A stretch of DNA of 64,000 bases, taken from NCBI GenBank assembly GCA_964435375.1, contig CAYSYK010000004.1, positions 3,954 to 67,953 on the forward strand, in the 5' to 3' direction. Under the pieces are notes generated by a model. The model did no database searches. It was not told the DNA's origin and worked only from the letters and a program-made list of their open reading frames with translations. Source of the stretch: an uncultured Oscillospiraceae bacterium (GTDB taxonomy: Bacteria; Bacillota; Clostridia; Oscillospirales; Oscillospiraceae). The translations under genes and the position numbers were made by a program. Shown in pieces: positions 1,295 through 14,387 of the stretch. How positions within the stretch are numbered: the first letter of the stretch is position 1; every line of letters begins with the position of its first letter.

Positions 1295-2248
1295 TCATTT
1301 CCGCACCCGATAATTCCGGGGCGAAACGCCATAGGTCCCTCGGAAAAGCCGATGGAAATAGCTGATGTTTTCATAGCCGACCGAGGCGGCAATGTCGTCA
1401 ATATTCCAGTTGGTCGTGCGCAGCAGAAACGCCGCCTGTGTCAATCGCTTTTCCTGCACCAGCTCCGTGTAGGTTTTCCCGGTCTGTCGATGTATCTCCC
1501 GGGAAAGGGTCGCGATGTCCAGATGGAGCATTTTCGCCACTTCCGTCAGGCTGCCGTCGGCATAGTGCGTTTCGATATAGCGCAAGACCGTCAAAATCAC
1601 GCTCTCGCGGGGCGGTTGCCACAGCTTGTCCGTGTAATTCATCAGTTCCAGAAGCAGCAGTGACATGGTCGTCTGGCTGATGTTGCGCCGATTGTGTTTC
1701 TTTTCCAGCAGAACAAGGATCAGATTTTCGATCAGGTTCTGGATGGAAATATCGTCCGCCGTCTGAAAATACAGGTAGCTGTTGCCTTGTTTCTGTCCCA
1801 GCAGGCAATCAAGAATGAATCGGCGCAGGGGAGAGGCATCCTCCTGAATGGCCGACAGCGGCTCGTTAAAAAATTCCGGCAAGACGATAAAATTTACCGT
1901 AATATCGGTCGCACCCGCTTTGCACACCTCGTGTCGGGCGGACTGCCCCAGAAACAGCAGTTCCCCCTCTTTGAGGCGGATGTGCCGCCCGTTGACAATG
2001 TGCGTCGTCTCGCCCATGCAGGAATAGATCACTTCCACATAGTCGTGCGTGTGCTCCGGGAAGTGGATAAAGCGGGTGTGCGGGCGCATCGTGATGAGTT
2101 TGCCGTCCGCCAGCAGCTTTTTGCTGTTGATGACGTTGGTGGTGCCGGTCATGTAAATATCTCTGTCGATGGAGGGACTTCCGTCGAGCAAAACCCGTTC
2201 CTCGGGTGTGATCGGCTGCAGGCGTGCGAGAATACCGGGATCAATCAT
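1295..2248 (-). CDS. AraC-family transcriptional regulator (cupin sensor plus HTH)
   Basis: N-terminal HTHDYVEVIY cupin motif; C-terminal IAASVGYENISYFHRLFRGTYGVSPRNYR AraC HTH. Confidence 0.92.
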   Translation of the reverse strand: MIDPGILARLQPITPEERVLLDGSPSIDRDIYMTGTTNVINSKKLLADGKLITMRPHTRFIHFPEHTHDYVEVIYSCMGETTHIVNGRHIRLKEGELLFLGQSARHEVCKAGATDITVNFIVLPEFFNEPLSAIQEDASPLRRFILDCLLGQKQGNSYLYFQTADDISIQNLIENLILVLLEKKHNRRNISQTTMSLLLLELMNYTDKLWQPPRESVILTVLRYIETHYADGSLTEVAKMLHLDIATLSREIHRQTGKTYTELVQEKRLTQAAFLLRTTNWNIDDIAASVGYENISYFHRLFRGTYGVSPRNYRVRK

Positions 2249-2649: not shown

Positions 2650-3738
2650 ATGAAAACGATGAAACGTATTGTGGCGGTAACAATGCTCTTGAGCATTTTG
2701 CTCGTCTGCGCGGCCGGTTGCACGCCCGAGGACGATACTACCACCACCGCCCCGAACGCCGACGGGAGTTCCGGCGTAGCCGATACGACCACAGGATCGG
2801 GTCAGCCCGCACACGTCCACACCTACAGTGCGCTGATCTATGAAGAGGATGCCACCTGCTCCGAAGCCGGTTGCAAATCCCATTACACCTGCTTTGGTTG
2901 TGACGCGGTCTTCGATGAAGAGAAGAAGGAAGTTTCTTCCGAAAGTCTGGTCATCTCCGCACTGGGGCACGATTTTGACGATGCCTACAAATGCACCCGC
3001 TGCAAGCTGAAGCTGGGCGAAGTCGTGGAAGCCATCGCCGCCCTGCCCGACGGCAACAACATCACGCTCTCCGCTCTGTCCGCCATCGGCGATGCCATCA
3101 GCAAATACAACAAGCTGGACGATGCCGCGAAAGACGCTCTGAACAATCTGACCGATAAGGTCGCGCATCTTCTGGCGTTGAGCGAACAAATCGAGGGCAT
3201 TGAGGTCGGCGTTATGGCAAAATACCTGTCCGATGCCGGCCAGAACCAGACTCTGACAGACGTGAAGTGGACCGACGGTGTCGACGAGATCTACGGCAAC
3301 TACAAGCAGATCGACTACAGTAGCTGGCAGTGGGTCAATCTCAAGTACAACAGCTCCACCCGTCCCGAGGGCAAAACGGTCGTCATGTTCGTCTACAACG
3401 CTGGCGATGCCGATGTCGAGCTGACTTGGGGCGCGGTCGATCCCGCCAAGACTGGTTGTATCTTCAACATCGGTGTCGGCTGGACAAGCGGCGACGGGGA
3501 AGACCCCGATGTCGGCCATCAGGTGCTGAAAGCAAACTCGTGGAACATGATTACGATCAAATGGGACGCCATCTACGGCTTTAATGCCAACGTCATGACC
3601 ACCGGCCATTATGCCGATGCCGAAAACAAAGCCGCCGTGAACGGCTGGAAATTCTCCGACGTATACATGATGGAAGCGGACAAACTCCCGCTGATGCAGC
3701 AAATCATCGACAACAGCGTCGGCACTTCCGCAGAATAA
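2650..3738 (+). CDS. Modular surface lipoprotein 1 (His/Cys module, helical spacer, putative beta-sandwich domain)
   Basis: Start moved to ATG 2650. Lipobox VCAAG-C, Thr-rich linker, HVH...ATC...HYTCFGC...GH...CTRC module. Paralogous to the next gene. Confidence 0.75.
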   Translation: MKTMKRIVAVTMLLSILLVCAAGCTPEDDTTTTAPNADGSSGVADTTTGSGQPAHVHTYSALIYEEDATCSEAGCKSHYTCFGCDAVFDEEKKEVSSESLVISALGHDFDDAYKCTRCKLKLGEVVEAIAALPDGNNITLSALSAIGDAISKYNKLDDAAKDALNNLTDKVAHLLALSEQIEGIEVGVMAKYLSDAGQNQTLTDVKWTDGVDEIYGNYKQIDYSSWQWVNLKYNSSTRPEGKTVVMFVYNAGDADVELTWGAVDPAKTGCIFNIGVGWTSGDGEDPDVGHQVLKANSWNMITIKWDAIYGFNANVMTTGHYADAENKAAVNGWKFSDVYMMEADKLPLMQQIIDNSVGTSAE

Positions 3739-3819
3739 GCACATCTATAAGTAAGCAACACTCCGAAAACCCGATTTCCATTCAAAAATTGATTCAGAAA
3801 ATCTTAGGAGGAAAAAATA

Positions 3820-6297
3820 ATGAAACGCAACACGAAAAACACGCCGGTAAAATTGCTGTGTCTGGCGATGGTGATCGCCGCCTGCGCACTGGCAATGGTT
3901 GCCTGCACTCCCGAAGGCGCAAGCACGAACGGAACGACGACCGGTGAACCCACCGGCACCCAGCAACAGCCGCACGAGCACGCATACGTCTGGCACGAAG
4001 AAGTCGCCGCCACCTGCACGGCCAACGGCACGAAGGGACATTTCACCTGTGAGTGCGGCAAGTATTTCGATGCAGACAAGAATGAAATCACGGCAGACGA
4101 TCTGGCCATCGTCGGCGGACACAATTTCGTAAACTATGTCTGCGCAGGTTGTAACACCGACCTGAGCGCACTGGCCGCAAAAATCGATGCTCTGCCCGAA
4201 AGTAACTATTCCTTGGCCGACATCCCCGTGATCAACGCCGTCAAGAAAGAATTTGACGCGCTGGACGATGCATTCAAAGCCGTGCTTACCAATTCCGCAC
4301 GCCTTGACAATGCCGTATCCGCCATTTCCGGCGTTTGGGTAGCGGCAGGTGCCGACACACTGGCCAGCGGTGGTCAGTGCGACCAGAGCCTTGTGGGATT
4401 TGCCGCAACCGCATCCGAAGACGAAGGTCTGGGCACCGTGGTGACCATCGGCTATGATGCATGGCAGTGGGCAAACTACCGCCACAACAGCACCGAAAAG
4501 ATTGCCGTCGGCACGAAGGTTGCCTTGGGCGTGTACAATGCCTCCGGCGAGGCAAAGGGCCTGCACTGGGGCGACGGCGCGACGGTTTACACCAACGCCG
4601 ATCAGGTCATTTTGCAGCCCGGCTGGAACCTGATCACCTTCACTTGGGAATGGGACGAGAACGCGATCGGCGAAAATTACGTGATCGCCACGCATATTTA
4701 TACGCTGTCCCCCGTCGGCAACGGCGAGAACATGAACGGCTGGAAATTCACCGCGCTGTTCGCTTACAGCGACGAAGCCGCCTTCAAGGCACTGGCAAGC
4801 AACTCCGTAGACGTTGAAATCCAGCCCGCGCACGTTCACGAGTACATCCACCACGACAAAGTCGATGAAACCTGCACCGTAGACGGTGTCGCAGAGCACT
4901 ACACCTGCGCGTGCGGCAAGTATTTCGATGTCAACAAGAATCCCACCACACAAGCCGCACTTGCGATCGCGCACGGACACAAGTTCGTCGATTCCGTCTG
5001 CTCCGGCTGCGGGCTGAATGTCGATGCCATCATCGAAAGCATTGAAAATCTGAGTCTGGCAAATCTGGCCGACGTGATCGCGCAGTACACCGCACTGCCC
5101 GAGGCGGACAAGGCGCTGGTCACAAACGGCTACAAGCTGGCCGCCCTCGAAAATCTGATCGTTGTCGGCGCGGACACGCTGGCTAACTGGGGCGACTGCG
5201 GCTCGGCCGTCACGTTCACCACCGCCTCCGATGACGTTTACGGCGCATACGGCGAGCTGAACCACACCGCAAGCTGGGCATCCGTGAAATACGCCTCGAA
5301 CCTCTTGCTGCAGGGACTGAACAAAGACCTCGTCGTCTACATCTACAACCCCACCGACGCCAACGTCGATATCGCATTCGGCTATCTCAACGACTCCCAC
5401 CCCGAGAGCATTTTCCAAGGCGCTTGCTACAAATATCAGACTTTGAACGCAAACTCTTGGACAAAGGTTGTCATCGAGTGGTCCGATGCTTATAATTACT
5501 ACATGGAACTCCAGCACATGCTGATGATCGCCTCCACCGGCAGCGCTTGCACCGCCGGTAACGGCATCAATCTGACCGGCTTCAAGATGTCCTCCATGTA
5601 CATCGTCGATGACGCCGCCGCGCTGGATGTTCTGACCGGCGACAGCGATGCCGTGCAGGCCGTGATCAGCGCGATCGACACACTGACGCTTGCAAACATC
5701 GAAGCGAATCTGCAGGGCGTGCTGGCGCAGTATAACGCGCTGTCCGATACGGACAAGGCTCTCGTCACCAACGCAGGCAAGCTGACCGCTCTGGCCAACA
5801 TTCAGGTCGTCGGCGCGGACACGCTGGCCAACTGGGGCGACTGCGGCTCGGCCGTCACGTTCACCACCGCCTCCGATGACGTTTACGGCGCATACGGCGA
5901 GCTGAACCACACCGCAAGCTGGGCATCCGTGAAATACGCCTCGAACCTCTTGCTGCAGGGACTGAACAAAGACCTCGTCGTCTACATCTACAACCCCACC
6001 GACGCCAACGTCGATATCGCATTCGGCTATCTCAACGACTCCCACCCCGAGAGCATTTTCCAAGGCGCTTGCTACAAATATCAGACTTTGAACGCAAACT
6101 CTTGGACAAAGGTTGTCATCGAGTGGTCCGATGCTTATAATTACTACATGGAACTCCAGCACATGCTGATGATCGCCTCCACCGGCAGCGCTTGCACCGC
6201 CGGTAACGGCATCAATCTGACCGGCTTCAAGATGTCCTCCATGTACATCGTCGACGACGCCGCCGCGCTGGACGCTCTGATTCCCGCCGCAGAATAA
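3820..6297 (+). CDS. Modular surface lipoprotein 2 (two His/Cys modules, three helical spacers, three beta-rich domains)
   Basis: AGGAGG RBS, lipobox AMVA-C, internally repeated modules, last two domains identical in protein sequence. Confidence 0.8.
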   Translation: MKRNTKNTPVKLLCLAMVIAACALAMVACTPEGASTNGTTTGEPTGTQQQPHEHAYVWHEEVAATCTANGTKGHFTCECGKYFDADKNEITADDLAIVGGHNFVNYVCAGCNTDLSALAAKIDALPESNYSLADIPVINAVKKEFDALDDAFKAVLTNSARLDNAVSAISGVWVAAGADTLASGGQCDQSLVGFAATASEDEGLGTVVTIGYDAWQWANYRHNSTEKIAVGTKVALGVYNASGEAKGLHWGDGATVYTNADQVILQPGWNLITFTWEWDENAIGENYVIATHIYTLSPVGNGENMNGWKFTALFAYSDEAAFKALASNSVDVEIQPAHVHEYIHHDKVDETCTVDGVAEHYTCACGKYFDVNKNPTTQAALAIAHGHKFVDSVCSGCGLNVDAIIESIENLSLANLADVIAQYTALPEADKALVTNGYKLAALENLIVVGADTLANWGDCGSAVTFTTASDDVYGAYGELNHTASWASVKYASNLLLQGLNKDLVVYIYNPTDANVDIAFGYLNDSHPESIFQGACYKYQTLNANSWTKVVIEWSDAYNYYMELQHMLMIASTGSACTAGNGINLTGFKMSSMYIVDDAAALDVLTGDSDAVQAVISAIDTLTLANIEANLQGVLAQYNALSDTDKALVTNAGKLTALANIQVVGADTLANWGDCGSAVTFTTASDDVYGAYGELNHTASWASVKYASNLLLQGLNKDLVVYIYNPTDANVDIAFGYLNDSHPESIFQGACYKYQTLNANSWTKVVIEWSDAYNYYMELQHMLMIASTGSACTAGNGINLTGFKMSSMYIVDDAAALDALIPAAE
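5164..6272 (+). repeat. Intragenic direct repeat, 464 bp x2 (5164-5627 and 5809-6272)
   Basis: By-eye comparison found only two synonymous differences (5184 T vs 5829 C; 5610 T vs 6255 C). Period 645 bp = 215 codons. Confidence 0.92.
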
Positions 6298-6342
6298 TCT
6301 ACCGTTTTCGGAACAGAGAAGTTTCCATTTGGGAGATTTTCC

Positions 6343-7575
6343 GTGAAAAAATTGAGATTTCTTTCCCTGTGCATAGCAGTTCTGCTGCTATGCACAGGAT
6401 GTTCCGTCAATTCCCAACAGACGGGATCCACCGCGGGATCTACCGTTTCGGAAGATCCCGTTTTGACGGAGCAATGCGTCGATTTTGTTGTCGAGGTCGA
6501 AGCGGGATCCGATCCCGTCATCCTGCATCTGACCGACCCGCAAATCATTGATGCCGCGCAAAAGCGAGCGCCCGACCGTCTCGGCGCAGCCGCCGACGAA
6601 TACTGGGCGACGGATAAAGCCGAGCAGCGTTGCTACGGCTATATTCGCGAAACGATCGAGCAAACAAACCCCGACCTGATTCTCCTGACGGGGGATCTCG
6701 TTTACGGCGAGTTTGACGACAGCGGAACGGCTTTGTGTTCTTTCATCGCATTTATGGACGGCTTTCGCATCCCGTGGGCGCCGGTTTTCGGCAATCACGA
6801 CAACGAAAGCAACATGGGCGCAGATTGGCAGTGCGCGCAGTTGGAAAAATCCGAGTACTGCCTGTTCAAGCAGCGGCAGTTGACGGGAAACGGCAACTAT
6901 ACCGTCGGCATTTCACAGGGCGGTGTCCTCACACGGGTATTTTTCATGCTGGACTCCAACGGCTGCTCCGCCGCCAGTGAAGCATCGCTGGCCAACCAAC
7001 ACACCAAAACAACCGTCGGTTTCGGAAACGATCAAATCGACTGGTACACGCAGACGGCTTTGCAAATTCGCGAAAATCATCCGCAGGCAAAGCTCTCCTT
7101 CGCCTTTCATATTCAGCCGGCAATTTTTCGAACCGCTTTCGAAAAGTACGGTTTTGTCAACGACGACGCGGAAATGCTCCTGAATCCGATCGACATTTCC
7201 GCGCACCCCGAGAAAACGGACGGAGATTTCGGATACTTGGGCAGATGCCTGAAAGACCCGTGGGATGCCAACAATCGAGTGTGGAAGAGCATGGTCGCTT
7301 TGGGTGTCGATTCCGTTTTTGTCGGCCATGAACACTGCAACAATGCGAGCGTGGTTTACAAAGGCGTGCGCTTGCAGTACGGCATGAAAAGCAGCACCTA
7401 TGACCGTGCAAATTTCCGAAACCGTGACGGCACGATCGTCGGCACATCGCTGGGCGATGCGGACGGCAGCCGTGAACCTTTGGTCGGCGGCACGGTGATC
7501 CCCCTGTCTTCATCGGACGGCAGCATTCTGCAGCCGTATATTTACATTTGTGCAAACGTCGACACCAAGCAATAA
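6343..7575 (+). CDS. Lipoprotein, calcineurin-like metallophosphoesterase
   Basis: GTG start, lipobox LCTG-C. Motifs HLTDPQ, LTGDL, FGNHD, FHI and GHEH. Confidence 0.85.
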   Translation: MKKLRFLSLCIAVLLLCTGCSVNSQQTGSTAGSTVSEDPVLTEQCVDFVVEVEAGSDPVILHLTDPQIIDAAQKRAPDRLGAAADEYWATDKAEQRCYGYIRETIEQTNPDLILLTGDLVYGEFDDSGTALCSFIAFMDGFRIPWAPVFGNHDNESNMGADWQCAQLEKSEYCLFKQRQLTGNGNYTVGISQGGVLTRVFFMLDSNGCSAASEASLANQHTKTTVGFGNDQIDWYTQTALQIRENHPQAKLSFAFHIQPAIFRTAFEKYGFVNDDAEMLLNPIDISAHPEKTDGDFGYLGRCLKDPWDANNRVWKSMVALGVDSVFVGHEHCNNASVVYKGVRLQYGMKSSTYDRANFRNRDGTIVGTSLGDADGSREPLVGGTVIPLSSSDGSILQPYIYICANVDTKQ

Positions 7576-7593
7576 CAGAAACGAGGTAACGCT

Positions 7594-9330
7594 ATGAAAA
7601 CAAGAAATTTGATCGCAGGTCTGCTGGCAGCCGTGATGCTGCTGTGCGTCGGCTGTTCCGGCAGCGGCACAACCACCGGCGGCAACGACATCCCCGGTAA
7701 CACCGGCGATAACGCAGGCAACGGCGAATACATCAGTGCCAAGCCCTTGGACATCAGCCGGCTTGGGGACGGATACAACCCCAACTATATGCCCGATGCC
7801 GCCTCCATCAAGCAGAGAAGCGGCACCATCCACGTCGTGCTTGACTTTGACGGCACGCAGGTCGGCTGGCAGAAAGTGGCCGAGGAATACGAGCGCCTGC
7901 ACAGCGGCAAGGTCGACGTCGTAATCAATACCGACTATTCCGGCACCATGTACGGCGAAAAAATCATCAGCGAGCTGCAAAACACCAAGACCGATTGGGA
8001 CATCGTTCAGGGCAACCTCGGCAGCTATCACACCAACGCCGCCTGTATGCACATCTCCTCCATTTCCGACCAAAACAACGAATACTGCGGTGCAAACGTA
8101 AAATGGAACGACGTTCTGGAAAACATTGCGTTCGAATCCATCGAAAACCACTCCACCGACACATATATCATCAACTCCGAAACCATGCAAACCTGCTGGT
8201 TCGTCAACAAAACCGCTCTGGACGAGGCCGCCGCGCTGGGCTATCGAAACTCCGACGGCGAGGCCGCCACGCCGAACACATGGGATGATCTTATGAGCCT
8301 GTGCGCCTATATGCAGCAGGCCGGCTACAATAACCCCCTCGGAATCACCCTGTCCGAAGGCTCCATCCGCACCGCGCAGTTCTCTTGGCTGACGCGTATC
8401 TACGGCGACTATTACTATCGCCAGTACTACCCCTACGTCATGAACTCCGAATATTGGGACGACTACGATCCCGAAGACACCGCGCCCGAGACCGTGGACG
8501 GCTACGGCGTGAAATTCTGCAAGATCGCGAACCTGATGCTGGACAAAAACTCCACTCTCACCGACGACGGTTTTGTCGGTGTCGGCAGCGACATTTACAA
8601 AGATTATCTGTCCAACTTCTATAAAATGCGTGACTATATCATCGCCGATGCGAGCGCGACCGAATTTGCCGCCCTGCGCGACCAGTTCCGTCTGCAATCC
8701 AAAGGCAAAAAGAGCGCGCAGATCATCCTCGATTACGTCGGCTACGGCTGCCTGTACAGCACCTCCGATGCCATCGAGCTGGATTATTTCGACTATCCCG
8801 TGATGGAAAGCGACTATGTTGACTCCGACACGCTTACCAGAGACATCGGCGGCAACGGCGGCTTCCTGTCCATCGTCAAGCACGTCGGCGACAAGGCACA
8901 GAACGAGCTGAACATCGACTTCATGAAATTCTTCATGTCCCCCTACGGTCAGACCATCTACTATCAAGGTCTGGCGGAAGGCAATGTCGCGCCCGCAGGT
9001 CAGACCACCGTCAAGCACGTGGTCATGCCCCAGCAGTGGAGCGCATTCTACAACAAAGTCGGCAAAAAGGTCGAATTTAACGGCAACGTCGACGGCAACA
9101 TCTTCATTTCTTGGGGCGTCCGCTTCTTCGGCGACTACGAGAACACCGACGATATGATCGGCGAAATCTGGAAAAAGCTGCTGCTTCGCGGCATCGGCGC
9201 GAAGGATGAGATCACGGTCGACGAGTTCTGCACAAGCTGGTACGATGCCTGCTTCAAAGACTACAAGCTCAAGTGCATCGACTGCCAGTGGCCCGAAAAT
9301 ATGTACCTGAATCCCGCACTTCCTTACTAA
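7594..9330 (+). CDS. Carbohydrate ABC transporter solute-binding lipoprotein
   Basis: Lipobox LCVG-C. WFVNKTALDEA...TPNTWDDLMSLC segment typical of family-1 SBPs. Precedes two permeases. Confidence 0.78.
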   Translation: MKTRNLIAGLLAAVMLLCVGCSGSGTTTGGNDIPGNTGDNAGNGEYISAKPLDISRLGDGYNPNYMPDAASIKQRSGTIHVVLDFDGTQVGWQKVAEEYERLHSGKVDVVINTDYSGTMYGEKIISELQNTKTDWDIVQGNLGSYHTNAACMHISSISDQNNEYCGANVKWNDVLENIAFESIENHSTDTYIINSETMQTCWFVNKTALDEAAALGYRNSDGEAATPNTWDDLMSLCAYMQQAGYNNPLGITLSEGSIRTAQFSWLTRIYGDYYYRQYYPYVMNSEYWDDYDPEDTAPETVDGYGVKFCKIANLMLDKNSTLTDDGFVGVGSDIYKDYLSNFYKMRDYIIADASATEFAALRDQFRLQSKGKKSAQIILDYVGYGCLYSTSDAIELDYFDYPVMESDYVDSDTLTRDIGGNGGFLSIVKHVGDKAQNELNIDFMKFFMSPYGQTIYYQGLAEGNVAPAGQTTVKHVVMPQQWSAFYNKVGKKVEFNGNVDGNIFISWGVRFFGDYENTDDMIGEIWKKLLLRGIGAKDEITVDEFCTSWYDACFKDYKLKCIDCQWPENMYLNPALPY

Positions 9331-9357
9331 GACCAACTTTCCGAAGGTATTGTGGCT

Positions 9358-11886
9358 ATGAGTAACGTAACGACAAATCCTGCCCCGATCCGGGGCAGGA
9401 AAAAAATAAAAAGTACCATCCTGATCGTAGGCGTACTGACGTTCATCTTTGCTCTGATGACGGCCGGCAGCGCATGGATGATGCCCCGCAAGACCGTTCA
9501 CACGGACGTTTCCGGCGAGGAAATCACCGCCTCCGCACTTTTTTACGGAAAACGCGGTGAGGACTATTTCATGGCGAGCGGCACCACCTTCGAGCGCCGC
9601 AGTCTGTCCGGCGACGAGCAGATTCAATCCGTAAATTTTCTTTCCGACATCAATCGCTATGTGCAGCAGGAAAACGTGCAATTGCTTGAGGGCAGTCTGC
9701 TCCAGTTTTACTTCGTGTACGCCAACAAAAATACCGGCGGAGATAATCTGGTCATCATTGACAATCTCGGAAACCTGTTTAAATACACGGAAGGGGAGAA
9801 CGGTCTGGAATTTTCCTCGGACTGCCTGATTCGAGATTCCGCGACGCAACTGGTCAAGATGATCTCCGACGGCGACGAGCTGTACGTTCTTTCCAACTAT
9901 AACAACCGACTTTTGCTGCAATGCTACGATCTTAACAATCTTTCCGCAGGCGTGCAAAACAGCCGCTATATCTGGTCGGTGGACAGTGTCGGTTCGCAGA
10001 CGAGCCGGATTTCCCCCTTGACCTACAAAATCAAGCTGTGGGAATTTGTCGCCGAGGGAGATTACCTGTATCTGGCAACCGATCTGGGACTTTACAAGCT
10101 GAACAAAAACTTTTACGACTATCAGGACGTGAAATTTCTGGACGCGGCAGACAATGCCTACGTCACCTATCTGCGCGAAACGCTGAAAAAAGCCGATGCC
10201 GCAGTCAAGGCTGAGAACGGCCTGACCGACGAAATCATCGACGGCATGACGCAGGCGCAGATGGCGAAAATTTTCAAAACCGTCACGGGCATCAAAACCT
10301 CCGAAGCAAAAGCGAATGCCGCGGAAGTGTTCGTGGAGGAGCACCCGTGGTGCGTGGATTACGATGCCTCTTCCGCAACCCTGACCGTGAAAAACGAGTG
10401 TCTTGACTCCGAGGCGATCTCCGTTGTAAAGGGCAGTATGTATGTCGTTTTGCGCGGCATGGCATATTCTCCCGTCAACAAAATGTTCTATATCGCCAAC
10501 AGCTACGACGATACGATCTGCTGTGCCTCTCTGGAGGATGTCAACCGCATCGGCCTGACGGACAGCAAAACCTTCGGCGATATCTGCAAAACACTCGACC
10601 TCTCGTTCGGCGGGAAGAAATTCCACGAATCCAAGAGCCTCGAGTGGAACGAAAACGCAAATACCCTGTACGTGGCATTTGCCAGCGACAACAAGCTCAG
10701 CATTCTCGATATTAACGGCGACAAAGCGAAGCTCGCCTATCATTTTGAAGCGGGTTTCGACATTCAGGAATATGTCGGCGACGAACACAACGACAAAATC
10801 TATTTCCTGAACGTCGAAAAATCCACCGATCTGGCAAACAACGTTACCTTGCGCAACACCGTTACCTGCCTCAATCCCCAACGCAGCGAAAATACCGGTA
10901 CAACACGCACCTTGCTGATCGTAAGTGCCGTCATGACGGCCGTGACCGCCATCATTCTGGTATTTGCATTCCGCCTGTACAAAAATCCCGTTGCCGCGCA
11001 GAAAGCAGTCGTGATCGGGAAAGATCTGCGCAAGCACAGAAGAACGTATTTCGCGCTGATTCCCTTTGTCGTGCTGCTGATCATGTTCTGCTATTACGAG
11101 GCGTTCGGCTCGATCGTGCTGTCGTTCTTCGATTACACGCGCGACAAGCCAACGATGAACTGGAACAGCTTCGCGAACTACATCAAAGTATTCAACGACG
11201 ATGATTTCCTGCTGGCCGTCGGCAACACCCTGTTTTTCTTGGTGTTCGACATCATCATCGCCATCGCACCGCCGTTCATTTTCGCATTTTTCCTGTCGGT
11301 CATGCGCAGCAAGAAATATTCCGGCTTCGTGCGCACCGCATTGCTGATTCCCGGTATCATTCCGGGTGTCGCCTCCATGCTGATCTGGCGAGTTGGTATC
11401 TTCGGCGAAACGGGTGTGCTGAACACGCTGCTGTCTTTCTTCGGAAAAGGCTCCGTCGCATGGCTGGAAAATACCTCCGTCTCCCGCTGGTCACTGCTGC
11501 TGATGAGTTTCCCGTTCATCGGGCAATACCTCGTGTTCTACGGTGCCATCATGAATATCCCCAAAGATTATTATGAAGCCGCGGAACTGGACGGCATTTC
11601 GGTTTTCCGCCGTTTCATCTCCATCGACCTGCCGCTGTGCGTGCCGCAGATCGTATACGTTCTGATCACGACCATGATCAATTCCGCGCAGAACTATGCA
11701 AGAACTTATATGCTCCGCAGCTCGGGTACCGTCACCCTCTCGGAGAAAATGTATAAGGCCATGACCTCCAATGGCGCAAACTACGGCCTGTCGTCAGCAT
11801 ACGCCATGGTGATCTTTGCACTTCTGCTCGTAGCGCTGATCATCAATTTCAGAATGCAGAAAAAAAGCTATATGGGAGAGTCCTGA
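9358..11886 (+). CDS. CUT1 ABC permease (MalF/UgpA-like) with a large N-terminal extracellular domain
   Basis: C-terminal ~290 aa with six hydrophobic segments and EAA loop IPKDYYEAAELDG, preceded by TM, ~475 aa hydrophilic domain, TM. Confidence 0.85.
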   Translation: MSNVTTNPAPIRGRKKIKSTILIVGVLTFIFALMTAGSAWMMPRKTVHTDVSGEEITASALFYGKRGEDYFMASGTTFERRSLSGDEQIQSVNFLSDINRYVQQENVQLLEGSLLQFYFVYANKNTGGDNLVIIDNLGNLFKYTEGENGLEFSSDCLIRDSATQLVKMISDGDELYVLSNYNNRLLLQCYDLNNLSAGVQNSRYIWSVDSVGSQTSRISPLTYKIKLWEFVAEGDYLYLATDLGLYKLNKNFYDYQDVKFLDAADNAYVTYLRETLKKADAAVKAENGLTDEIIDGMTQAQMAKIFKTVTGIKTSEAKANAAEVFVEEHPWCVDYDASSATLTVKNECLDSEAISVVKGSMYVVLRGMAYSPVNKMFYIANSYDDTICCASLEDVNRIGLTDSKTFGDICKTLDLSFGGKKFHESKSLEWNENANTLYVAFASDNKLSILDINGDKAKLAYHFEAGFDIQEYVGDEHNDKIYFLNVEKSTDLANNVTLRNTVTCLNPQRSENTGTTRTLLIVSAVMTAVTAIILVFAFRLYKNPVAAQKAVVIGKDLRKHRRTYFALIPFVVLLIMFCYYEAFGSIVLSFFDYTRDKPTMNWNSFANYIKVFNDDDFLLAVGNTLFFLVFDIIIAIAPPFIFAFFLSVMRSKKYSGFVRTALLIPGIIPGVASMLIWRVGIFGETGVLNTLLSFFGKGSVAWLENTSVSRWSLLLMSFPFIGQYLVFYGAIMNIPKDYYEAAELDGISVFRRFISIDLPLCVPQIVYVLITTMINSAQNYARTYMLRSSGTVTLSEKMYKAMTSNGANYGLSSAYAMVIFALLLVALIINFRMQKKSYMGES

Positions 11887-12758
11887 TGATGAAAAATAAA
11901 ATTAAACGGGGAAAGCTGCGTTATTCGCACGAGAAACGGCCGTTTCAGGCGTTTATCACCGTCGTGATCACGCTGTGTATGCTCTTTTCCTTCCTTGCAC
12001 TGTTTATTACGGTCGTCAACTCCATGAAAACCGATAATGAAGTTGCATTTAACATCTTTGCTCTTCCGTCATGGGAAAATCTGTTCGACGCCATTGCGCA
12101 TAACTTCTCAAGTGCATGGGCGGAAATCGGCCCGTATTTCTTCCGTTCCGTCATTACGTCGCTCATCGGCTCCATCGGCGCGGCGATCATCGGTGCGATC
12201 TTGGCGTACATCCTTGTTTTCAAGGATTTCTATTTCAAAAATGTCGTTTTCATGCTGTTCATCGCCGTCATGCTGATTCCCTCGATCATCGGCTATCCGG
12301 TGCTGCTGCCGCTGATGCGCGACACATTCAATCTCGGCGATTCACTGGCCGGTTATGTCATCCCCACCATCGGCGGCTGCCAGGTAGGTGCGATGTTCCT
12401 GTTCCGTACGTTCTTCAGCCAGCAACCCCGTGCGATGTACGAAAGTGCTAAAATGGACGGTGCAAACGACGTGTATCTGTTCTGCTATTTCACCGTGCCG
12501 CTGTCCTTGCCCATCATTCTCTATTTCGCCGTGGGCATTTTCACGAATATGTACAATGATTATCTGTGGTCAAGCCTGATCCTCGATTCGAATCTGACGC
12601 TGATGCCGAAGATGCTGTCCTTGGTCGACTCCAATACGCTTCAGTACGGCTCCATGTATGCCATGTACTGCATCTCGTCCGTGCCGATGATCGTCATTGC
12701 CATCATTTCCGCGAAGTATTTCCGCAGCGGCGAGTTTGCCTCCGGTATGAAACTGTGA
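11886..12758 (+). CDS. CUT1 ABC permease (MalG-like)
   Basis: Hydrophobic segments, EAA loop QPRAMYESAKMDGAND; start overlaps the upstream stop. Confidence 0.9.
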   Translation: MMKNKIKRGKLRYSHEKRPFQAFITVVITLCMLFSFLALFITVVNSMKTDNEVAFNIFALPSWENLFDAIAHNFSSAWAEIGPYFFRSVITSLIGSIGAAIIGAILAYILVFKDFYFKNVVFMLFIAVMLIPSIIGYPVLLPLMRDTFNLGDSLAGYVIPTIGGCQVGAMFLFRTFFSQQPRAMYESAKMDGANDVYLFCYFTVPLSLPIILYFAVGIFTNMYNDYLWSSLILDSNLTLMPKMLSLVDSNTLQYGSMYAMYCISSVPMIVIAIISAKYFRSGEFASGMKL

Positions 12759-12779: not shown

Positions 12780-14387
12780 ATGAAAAACATCAGCAAAAAA
12801 CTGTTTTCTCTGGCCATCGCCTGCACACTGTGCCTATCCGCCGTCCCGGGATGCACCCCCGGGCAAGAATCCACCCCCGACGGCGGCACGACATCCGGCG
12901 CGGATGCCACCGAGCCGATCGTGTTTGAAACCGTCTACACGGACGGCAGTGCAAAATCTCTTCTGCGCTACAACGCAGCCGTACCCGAAGAAAACGGCGT
13001 TGTCAGCTACGAGATCAAGCGCGACGTCGGAAATAAAAATTATATGCGCATCGCGCTCGAAACCGACGTAAACCTCGTCGGCTATATCTACTACACGAAT
13101 GCGCAGGATGCCACGCAAAGCCACAAAGAAAAATTCTTCATTGAGGCAGGTTCCACGGAATTTACAACCTTCCTTGACGCATTCCGCCACGGCGCATTTG
13201 CGCCTTATGAAAAAACGATCGGAAAAATCACGCTGCAAAACGTGGACGACACGAAATCCGGAACCGTCACGCTCAAAAGCGTCGATTTCTCCGATCGGAC
13301 TTACGACCCCGACGTTACCATGTACATTGACGACGGCGTTCTGCGCGTGGGTACATCGCTCGGCTTCGGCGGTGCCATCACCTATGTGGCGCGCATTAAT
13401 GCCAATATCAAAGAGTACATTGACGTCAACGGTAACACCTGCATTGGTCCGCTGGAGGATAGCTCCGATGTCGACCTGATCTCCGAAGAGGCGAATCTTG
13501 TCAACATTTACGACTTGGGGCGGGAAATTCAGCAGTCGTTCTACTGGCCGGTAAAGCCACAGCACGGCTATGTGCCCACCAGTGACCAGAAATACCCGGG
13601 CGATCTGAACTACAATCCCATTCAGTGCGGAAGTGCCGGCAGCGTCGGCCCGCAGATTGTCGATTATCGCTGTTCCGAGGATGAAATTTACGTCAAATCC
13701 TACGGCGCGGACTGGTATCTAGTCAATCAGGTGGACGCGACCTACTATGAAACATGGCTCCGTTTCGGCATTGACGGTACGTTGGTGGTGAAAAACAGAG
13801 TCACAAACTTCGGCCAGTTCATCGACACCGATCGTCTGGAATTTGTCAATCAGGAATCTCCCGCGTTTTATTCGGTATACCCGCTGGACTATTTCTACGC
13901 GGAAACCACCGACGGCACGATTTTTGACAACGAGCTCACCGCCGTCGGCAACGGAAGCGTCAAATCCTCCGCCACCGATACGGCAAGCAGCGGATACTGG
14001 TACAGCCTGAGCGCCGAAAAAATCAAAAACAACTGGATCGCCTTCGTGACGGAAAACAAATTCGGACTGGGCATCTACAATCCGTCCGCCGACTGCTTTG
14101 TCGCATCCAGCGGCACCCCCACAACCAAGTACATGAGCAACCAGATAACGCACCCGGATTTTTATGTCGATGACTATTCCGGCTACATTCCGAGCTGCTA
14201 CACAAACAACTACGGGTATCTGAACACGTCGATTCGCTGCAAAATGACGGATTTTGTCCCGATGGAATTTTCCTACGCGCTGTACGCAGGTACGGTGCAG
14301 GAGATAAAGTCGGCATTCCGTCAGCTCGAAGTCGGCAACGTGATGGAGCCCGCCAAAATCACGTGGCCGCACGAAAACGTGCAGTGA
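12780..14387 (+). CDS. Uncharacterised lipoprotein 3
   Basis: Lipobox AVPG-C; aromatic and beta-strand-rich sequence; no family confidently recognised. Confidence 0.7.
   Translation: MKNISKKLFSLAIACTLCLSAVPGCTPGQESTPDGGTTSGADATEPIVFETVYTDGSAKSLLRYNAAVPEENGVVSYEIKRDVGNKNYMRIALETDVNLVGYIYYTNAQDATQSHKEKFFIEAGSTEFTTFLDAFRHGAFAPYEKTIGKITLQNVDDTKSGTVTLKSVDFSDRTYDPDVTMYIDDGVLRVGTSLGFGGAITYVARINANIKEYIDVNGNTCIGPLEDSSDVDLISEEANLVNIYDLGREIQQSFYWPVKPQHGYVPTSDQKYPGDLNYNPIQCGSAGSVGPQIVDYRCSEDEIYVKSYGADWYLVNQVDATYYETWLRFGIDGTLVVKNRVTNFGQFIDTDRLEFVNQESPAFYSVYPLDYFYAETTDGTIFDNELTAVGNGSVKSSATDTASSGYWYSLSAEKIKNNWIAFVTENKFGLGIYNPSADCFVASSGTPTTKYMSNQITHPDFYVDDYSGYIPSCYTNNYGYLNTSIRCKMTDFVPMEFSYALYAGTVQEIKSAFRQLEVGNVMEPAKITWPHENVQ

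Follow-up and report, generated by a model that had tools for sequence, protein, structure and literature searches.

The 64,000-nucleotide stretch of DNA analysed here (the window) comes from an uncultured gut Clostridia bacterium of the family Oscillospiraceae (contig CAYSYK010000004.1) and carries, at the head of a rhamnose/fucose uptake operon, two co-oriented neighbouring genes, gene A (lipoA, protein P0001) and gene B (lipoB, protein P0002). The explanation that we favour, and hold to be the probable one with some reserve, is that both genes encode surface glycan-binding lipoproteins, which stand on a short, probably zinc-stapled stalk and feed a rhamnose/fucose glycan importer. Its basis is the modular anatomy of the two proteins, their homologies, the predicted fold of one of their domains, the placement of the genes by an ATP-binding cassette (ABC) importer and the domain fusions found in relatives; from these we infer that zinc and a glycan are bound, which glycan this is, and that it is handed on to the transporter.

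In the proposed mechanism, the lipobox cysteine would anchor each protein in membrane lipid, while a flexible Thr/Ser/Gly linker would span the wall zone. The Cys/His module, probably stapled by zinc at a His-Cys3 site and a His-Cys2 cap, would serve as a stiff piece of stalk. Beyond it, one to three units, each built of a helical segment and a jelly-roll beta domain, would display domains of three sequence types that resemble carbohydrate-binding modules (CBMs). These CBM-like domains may keep a glycan that contains rhamnose and/or fucose at the cell surface, where the orphan lipoprotein lipo3, a candidate depolymerase, and a metallophosphoesterase lipoprotein would process the captured glycan. 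The products would pass to the solute-binding protein and from there to the ABC importer, and cytoplasmic glycoside hydrolases (GH78-like, GH95 and GH106) would complete the breakdown together with the rhamnose pathway. The rhamnose/fucose operon, the position of the pair by the importer in three other loci and the fusions involving lipo3 all fit glycan capture.

Much of the glycan from diet and host is broken down by gut Firmicutes, yet the machinery with which they capture it at their surface is understood far less well than the Sus-like systems found in Bacteroidota. The locus is a compact and testable example, with five lipoproteins and an ABC importer. It holds a candidate new CBM family that is detected by no Pfam or NCBIfam model, and a natural case in which a recently described Cys/His stalk module bears a likely binding domain, not an enzyme. 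Knowing the ligand of the beta domain would also help to find out what lipo3, which is fused to these units in relatives, does. The stalk module has been described in one protein (in 2025); the helix plus jelly-roll unit forms a rare family without a name, which would be a new CBM family if it proves to bind glycan. A bolder version of the proposal, which we offer tentatively and find doubtful when taken whole, is that the helix plus beta unit is a new CBM family with three types reading different epitopes of one rhamnose/fucose glycan, that the lipo3 domain is a new family of extracellular depolymerases, and that together they make up the first described Gram-positive SusE/F-like capture system on zinc-stapled stalks, spread among distant gut Clostridia by gene transfer.

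Modular anatomy of genes A and B

The borders of the modules were set by iterative hidden Markov model (HMM) searches over P0001, P0002 and their homologues, which delimited three module types (Table 1). These are a Cys/His module of about 67 aa, a helical segment of about 55-65 aa and a beta domain of about 155 aa, and the two genes together contain three, four and four of them, respectively. The fourth helix plus beta unit, in gene B, has no Cys/His module before it. Both proteins begin with a signal peptide that closes on a lipobox cysteine (AMVA-C29 in gene B), identified by eye rather than with a predictor, and after it comes a linker rich in Thr/Ser/Gly/Pro. The two genes are paralogues (BLASTP 4e-31, 30% identity across the whole unit), and both close with the same 11-mer, CCGCAGAATAA (3728-3738 and 6287-6297), which has no third occurrence in the window (0.03 expected from shuffles).

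Much of this anatomy had been anticipated by a sequence-only reading of the same DNA. The three stretches in which it placed the Cys/His module (2812-3003, 3973-4152 and 4831-5010) all lie within the HMM spans, each module is indeed followed by a helical spacer and a beta domain, and the shared ending that it took as a sign of tandem duplication occurs exactly twice, in genes that are paralogous. Its count of four variant beta domains is right as to number, but the domains fall into three types only, with the fourth a DNA-identical copy of the third.

A word-indexed search found 11 homologue clusters for gene A, at 53-96% identity, and eight for gene B, where homologue lengths run from 492 to 1359 aa and the number of units varies. 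Conservation among gene A orthologues is highest in the beta domain (mean identity 69%) and the Cys/His module (66%) and lowest in the signal peptide and linker (40%). Pfam and NCBIfam scans of P0001 and P0002 returned only noise, with no model covering any module, and P0002, searched with phmmer against PDB sequences, had no match. The helical segment has no credible sequence relative in Pfam or the PDB; its best match, 28 residues of a cytidylyltransferase (E = 9e-4), was taken as chance.

Table 1. Genes A and B, their modules and the neighbouring operon genes, with positions in the window.
Feature	Position	Strand	Basis or comment
Gene A (lipoA, P0001, 362 aa)	2650..3738	+	Lipoprotein: 1 Cys/His module, 1 helical segment, beta domain type 1
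Gene A signal peptide, lipobox LVCAAG-C24, Thr/Ser/Gly-rich linker (aa 25-52)	2650..2805	+	Read from sequence
Cys/His module 1 (P0001 aa 53-122; H57, C70, C81, C84; cap H107, C115, C118)	2806..3015	+	HMM
Helical segment 1 (P0001 aa 123-185; 121-185 by HMM)	3016..3204	+	HMM; model 1 helices 122-130, 140-154, 158-167, 171-180
Beta domain type 1 (P0001 aa 186-350)	3205..3699	+	HMM
Gene B (lipoB, P0002, 825 aa)	3820..6297	+	Lipoprotein: 2 Cys/His modules, 3 helix plus beta units
Cys/His module 2 (P0002 aa 50-115)	3967..4164	+	Module HMM, E 1.5e-26
Helical segment 2 (P0002 aa 115-172)	4162..4335	+	HMM
Beta domain type 2 (P0002 aa 174-323)	4339..4788	+	HMM; 32% identity to type 1
Cys/His module 3 (P0002 aa 336-401)	4825..5022	+	HMM; model 2 pLDDT 91-98
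Helical segment 3 (P0002 aa 400-450)	5017..5169	+	HMM; model 2 helices at model residues 66-74, 81-89, 93-96, 102-108
Beta domain type 3, copy 1 (P0002 aa 447-605)	5158..5634	+	HMM; model 2 pLDDT about 90-98; Foldseek top matches CBMs
Helical segment 4 (P0002 aa 610-666)	5647..5817	+	HMM; 59% identity to segment 3
Beta domain type 3, copy 2 (P0002 aa 664-819)	5809..6276	+	DNA 5830-6254 identical to 5185-5609
AraC-family regulator, divergently transcribed	1295..2248	-	Pfam HTH_18, HTH_AraC, AraC_binding; position kept in strain L011
Metallophosphoesterase lipoprotein	6343..7575	+	Pfam Metallophos; lipobox LLCTG-C
ABC importer: solute-binding lipoprotein, permease fused to external domain, second permease	7594..12758	+	Pfam SBP_bac_8, BPD_transp_1
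Orphan 535-aa lipoprotein lipo3	12780..14387	+	No Pfam or PDB match

The Cys/His module

A profile built from 20 copies of the Cys/His module matches, among PDB sequences, residues 851-907 of the M64 immunoglobulin A (IgA) protease of Thomasclavelia ramosa (9qa6_A; E = 2.9e-13, 52.8 bits). These residues correspond to subdomain I of ZBD1 (PMC12237041), which is the CTD2 region of a second study (PMC12415215), and the module, covered by these two 2025 papers, is therefore no longer undescribed. Both papers predict Cys/His zinc sites in ZBD1/CTD2, a domain with no experimental structure (PMC12237041; PMC12415215). The isolated CTD2 is an extended rod by small-angle x-ray scattering, and the term "metal-associated periscope domain" has been proposed for it (PMC12415215). 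No disulfide is present in any structure or model of the IgA protease, and the protein needs a reducing agent for monodispersity (PMC12237041).

The likeness to the protease domains ZBD1 and ZBD2 (CTD2 and CTD4; PMC12237041; PMC12415215) lies in a homologous module with the pattern H...ATC...YxCxxC...GH. ZBD1 is predicted to consist of short up-and-down strands and then a short helix, as is Cys/His module 3 in our model of part of gene B (model 2, below), and both sit between the cell anchor and the working domains. The two systems differ in that the protease has a rod of three subdomains, whereas each stalk here has one unit and a short His-Cys2 cap; the protease is held by a C-terminal sortase/transmembrane anchor, whereas the anchor here is an N-terminal lipid; and the cargo is a protease there but a CBM-like domain here. 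The published sites are mostly His2Cys2 and the conserved set here is His-Cys3, with the metal putative in both.

Across the 20 copies, H5, C18, C29 and C32 are invariant and H55 is nearly so, while in gene A seven residues (H57, C70, C81, C84, H107, C115 and C118) stay the same in 12 orthologues. The conserved set of putative ligands thus has one His with three Cys, and after these a cap with one His and two Cys. A second cysteine pair of the CxxC form, as the sequence-only reading had it, is found in gene A, but the gene B modules read C-x-C, and of the "HxH" that it noted the pattern is present but only the second His is conserved among gene A orthologues. Its idea of a structural metal knuckle holds up as far as computation goes, by homology to the predicted zinc-binding ZBD1/CTD2. 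In a relative, P0020, 11 tandem Cys/His modules lie between Laminin_G_3 domains and a C-terminal membrane anchor, an arrangement that points to stalk behaviour. From these comparisons of sequence, the Cys/His module is probably a metal-stapled spacer.

Two Pfam families gave weak matches to isolated modules, RYYR-CCHC (PF23674) in 5 and DUF7128 (PF23447) in 8 of the 20 copies; the best score, 22.8 bits against a cut-off of 27, is below the Pfam threshold, and P0001 and P0002 themselves have none. A literature search on "RYYR-CCHC" found nothing relevant. Elsewhere in the same genome (locus L010, contig C17:10500-21500), one open reading frame (4793-9454) encodes a 1553-aa secreted protein in which short Cys/His repeats occur by the dozen and whose C-terminus looks dockerin-like by eye, and the next (9470-10999) a cohesin-domain protein with a stalk of tandem GH...ATC...CxxC repeats and a membrane anchor at its end. 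The cohesin is the sole part of this pair recognised by Pfam.

Predicted fold and sequence types of the beta domain

Two AlphaFold models were obtained. Model 1, of gene A, is mediocre, with a pLDDT (predicted local distance difference test) score of 61. Model 2 covers residues 336-612 of P0002, was built from an alignment of all three beta types and additional stalk copies, and reaches a pLDDT of 93 and a predicted template modelling score (pTM) of 0.83; its beta domain is a jelly roll. Against the PDB, a Foldseek search of model 2 gave 27 matches at E <= 1e-3, nearly all of them jelly-roll CBMs, with neighbours in families CBM11, 4, 29, 22, 86 (from Roseburia, a gut Firmicute), 6, 35, 36 and 27. 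Model 1, which represents type 1 at lower confidence, separately matches CBM29, CBM11, CBM22, CBM4 and CBM16. The CBM-like jelly roll that the sequence-only reading had proposed is thus supported as far as prediction goes, and the W, YN, G, W and K motifs on which it drew are real columns, as described below.

The resemblance to jelly-roll CBMs, such as CBM11 (1v0a), CBM4 (1gui, 3p6b), CBM29 (1wcu, 1gwk), CBM22 (4xuo, 1dyo), CBM86 of Roseburia intestinalis (6sgf) and CBM6/35/36, extends from the predicted fold class to the size of about 150 aa, the tandem occurrence and the presence in surface proteins of a glycan-utilisation locus. In contrast to those families, the beta domain has no sequence-level relation to them, with a template modelling (TM) score of about 0.5, and is not attached to a recognised carbohydrate-active enzyme (CAZyme). 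A helical segment also stands before each beta domain here, and the model sets it against the domain with confidence. The high pTM suggests that the helical segment may be packed against the jelly roll as one unit, consistent with a repeat period of 215 aa.

The best fold matches of model 1 are to the C-terminal protoxin region of Cry1Ac and Cry1Aa (4w8j, 8w7n), over about 280 columns. In Cry1Ac, this region reportedly alternates helical bundles with CBM-like beta-rolls, an alternation that resembles the helix plus beta units here. The comparison goes no further, with a TM score of about 0.26 and a root-mean-square deviation of about 13 Å for a low-confidence model, no sequence relation and unrelated biology.

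The beta family is rare. Among 1.84 billion representatives, a full HMMER search with a three-type profile picked out 45 clusters at E <= 1e-3, and these clusters carry almost no Pfam domain; one distant member itself carries Metallophos. Searched against PDB sequences, the beta-domain profile gave spurious Dicer matches alone (E = 0.06), and sub-threshold Pfam matches to Polysacc_lyase and DUF6762 in relatives were rejected, as they cover 25-40 residues. A viral structure library returned phage tail-fibre jelly rolls that match equally weakly and add nothing. On the strength of the model, the beta domain would have a CBM fold and stand outside every family recognised by Pfam, NCBIfam and PDB sequence searches.

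The three sequence types, type 1 in gene A and types 2 and 3 in gene B, share 26-32% identity. W43, Y64-N65, G76, W113 and K149 do not vary over 22 copies of the three types, and W120 and G147 hardly do; the Trp residues common to all three types are more likely residues of the fold core. Type 1 has a conserved loop of its own (gene A aa 266-292), in which W278, D285, P286, H290 and Q291 are invariant, and the loops of each type are kept among orthologues. The sequence-only reading had suggested that the divergent tips could sample different glycan epitopes; they do differ between the paralogous types, but they are conserved within each type, with no rapid diversification. Since the beta domain with its type-specific loop and the stalk are among the best conserved parts of gene A orthologues, each type seems to have a fixed job rather than to diversify freely.

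The third and fourth beta domains share 425 nt of identical DNA (5185-5609 and 5830-6254, a period of 645 nt), while the spacers before them are only 59% identical in protein, and the fourth spacer is nearest to that of a relative, P0017 (66%). It seems from the spacers that an older unit was homogenised. A recent duplication of the whole unit was set aside, as the spacer identities favour such homogenisation, or recombination. In a related strain (L011, 94% DNA identity) the locus is the same and gene B encodes 610 aa, one unit fewer; that genome is a short-read assembly in which the repeat may have collapsed. Both copies of the duplicated domain contain, on the coding strand, a sigma-70-like sequence matching at 11 of 12 positions (TTGTCA, 17 nt, TATAAT; 5468-5496 and 6113-6141), which is probably a chance match doubled by the repeat.

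The locus, its relatives and competing explanations

The genes run from the divergent AraC-family regulator through A, B, the metallophosphoesterase, the solute-binding lipoprotein, the two permeases and lipo3 to a GFO/IDH/MocA oxidoreductase. Beyond this follow a GH78-like protein, GH95, an unassigned protein, GH106 and RhaA, and a class II aldolase and RbsD/FucU lie upstream of the pair. Five proteins of the locus have lipoboxes, and the GH-family glycosidases have no signal peptide. A literature search on Firmicute GH78/GH95/GH106 loci found nothing relevant.

The A-B pair lies directly upstream of the same solute-binding protein and permease genes in a Subdoligranulum locus (L006) and in strain L011. 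It stands beside the same importer in a metagenome locus (L009), with one extra gene, encoding P0018, between the pair and the solute-binding protein gene. In a metagenome-assembled genome of Faecalimonas (L005) the pair is adjacent, but the contig ends inside gene B, leaving the transporter genes out of view. P0018 (within L009 12513-16592) has a first part of 520 aa that is 52% identical to lipo3, followed by three helix plus beta units of type 3. The order is reversed in P0023, where three type-3 units are N-terminal and a lipo3-like domain C-terminal (aa 1545-2025; 27% identity, E = 2e-37). These two arrangements of fusion make lipo3 a candidate new extracellular enzyme; lipo3 itself has no Pfam match at E <= 1 and, with a four-sequence profile, no PDB match.

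The units of P0018 are 83-86% and 74% identical to individual units of the adjacent gene B orthologue, P0016 (L009 8494-16592), whereas the two units of P0016 share only 45% identity with each other, which argues that modules have been exchanged between neighbouring genes. By analogy, such exchange and fusion would be CBM-like behaviour. Within its own 1.82-Mb genome the beta domain is confined to genes A and B, and it was found neither in 48 species genomes of that genus nor in 32 genomes from the rest of the order, while the named genomes that have it belong to the genera Faecalimonas and Subdoligranulum. From this distribution the locus seems to move horizontally.

SusE and SusF of the polysaccharide utilisation loci of Bacteroidota, and Sas6 and Sas20 of Ruminococcus bromii, are non-catalytic surface glycan-binding proteins. 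Like them, genes A and B would encode non-catalytic lipoproteins with tandem CBM-like domains beside the transporter of a glycan locus. As with the SusE/SusF type, the pair diverges faster than the transporter: between the window and L006, the two genes are 54% and 43% identical and the transporter components 65-78%. In contrast to SusE/SusF, the host is a monoderm, the transporter is an ABC importer and not SusC/D, the domain families are unrelated and the stalk here is of the Cys/His kind.

Several points weigh against surface glycan binding on a zinc-stapled stalk. Jelly rolls are also found in protein binding and in viral coats. The fold matches of model 2 are weak (E about 1e-4, target-normalised TM 0.45-0.57, 9-14% identity) and speak for a fold class, not for a family or a ligand; no Pfam CBM model or PDB sequence matches the beta domain. 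Almost no catalytic domain co-occurs among the 37 distant family members, and lipo3, the fusion partner, has no Pfam or PDB match that would mark the fusions as attachment to a CAZyme. In the stalk, the cap (H107, C115, C118) has three conserved ligands only, and zinc in the IgA protease domains is itself a prediction (PMC12237041; PMC12415215).

These points leave some room for other explanations. The beta domains could be protein-protein or scaffolding modules that assemble lipo3, the phosphoesterase and the solute-binding protein and bind no glycan themselves. Cohesins and other protein binders are among the jelly-roll sandwiches, four further surface proteins are encoded in the locus of the units, which in relatives are joined to a lipo3-like domain, and a cohesin/dockerin pair exists elsewhere in the same genome; yet the top 50 listed PDB fold matches are mostly CBMs and include none described as a cohesin, three tandem paralogous types with changes in copy number are typical of CBM arrays, and no dockerin-like partner motif is seen in the locus proteins, so we regard scaffolding as improbable. 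Still less room is left for a small new enzyme built on a jelly roll, for example a glycoside hydrolase, a lyase or an esterase. The locus has no recognisable extracellular depolymerase, a domain of chondroitin ABC lyase ranks 12th among the fold matches, and one relative has a Pfam Polysacc_lyase match over 40 residues. That match, however, is partial and below threshold, a conserved acidic pair is missing from the columns invariant across types (A, G, W, Y, N, G, W and K), and the domains occur in tandem arrays whose best fold matches are non-catalytic modules; catalysis by the beta domain is very improbable.

The stalk-plus-head build, which recalls periscope and fibrillar adhesins (PMC12415215), would suit general adhesins that bind host mucus, food particles or other cells, with the siting by the transporter incidental, and the distant members of the family are giant, multi-repeat proteins of the surface, in which Listeria-Bacteroides repeats or fn3 occur but enzyme domains do not. 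Such an incidental siting fits poorly with a pair that in three other loci, including one in Subdoligranulum, a different lineage, stands beside the same ABC importer, with no terminator-like site in the two short gaps flanking gene B (from gene A to the phosphoesterase gene), and with units fused to a locus-specific domain; we think an adhesin role quite improbable. The remaining alternative concerns the stalk, whose cysteines may form disulfides or stay free, making the module a plain spacer that holds no metal. The proteins are extracellular, and the two points already raised about the cap and the predicted zinc favour this explanation, but His is invariant beside Cys, the CxxC/CxC knuckles lie on hairpins in the manner of zinc ribbons, the IgA protease lacks disulfides and needs a reducing agent (PMC12237041), and the host is presumably a gut anaerobe. 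A metal-free stalk has, in our estimate, a small chance of being right. Glycan-binding lipoproteins on a probably zinc-stapled stalk stay the explanation that we favour.

Two further differences between the loci concern genes beside the pair. The metallophosphoesterase lipoprotein gene lies between gene B and the solute-binding protein gene in the window and in strain L011 but not in L006, and L009 has the lipo3-fusion gene there instead. In L006 (2644-4749), the GFO/IDH/MocA homologue has 701 aa, against 419 aa in the window, and its position is upstream of gene A instead of downstream of lipo3.

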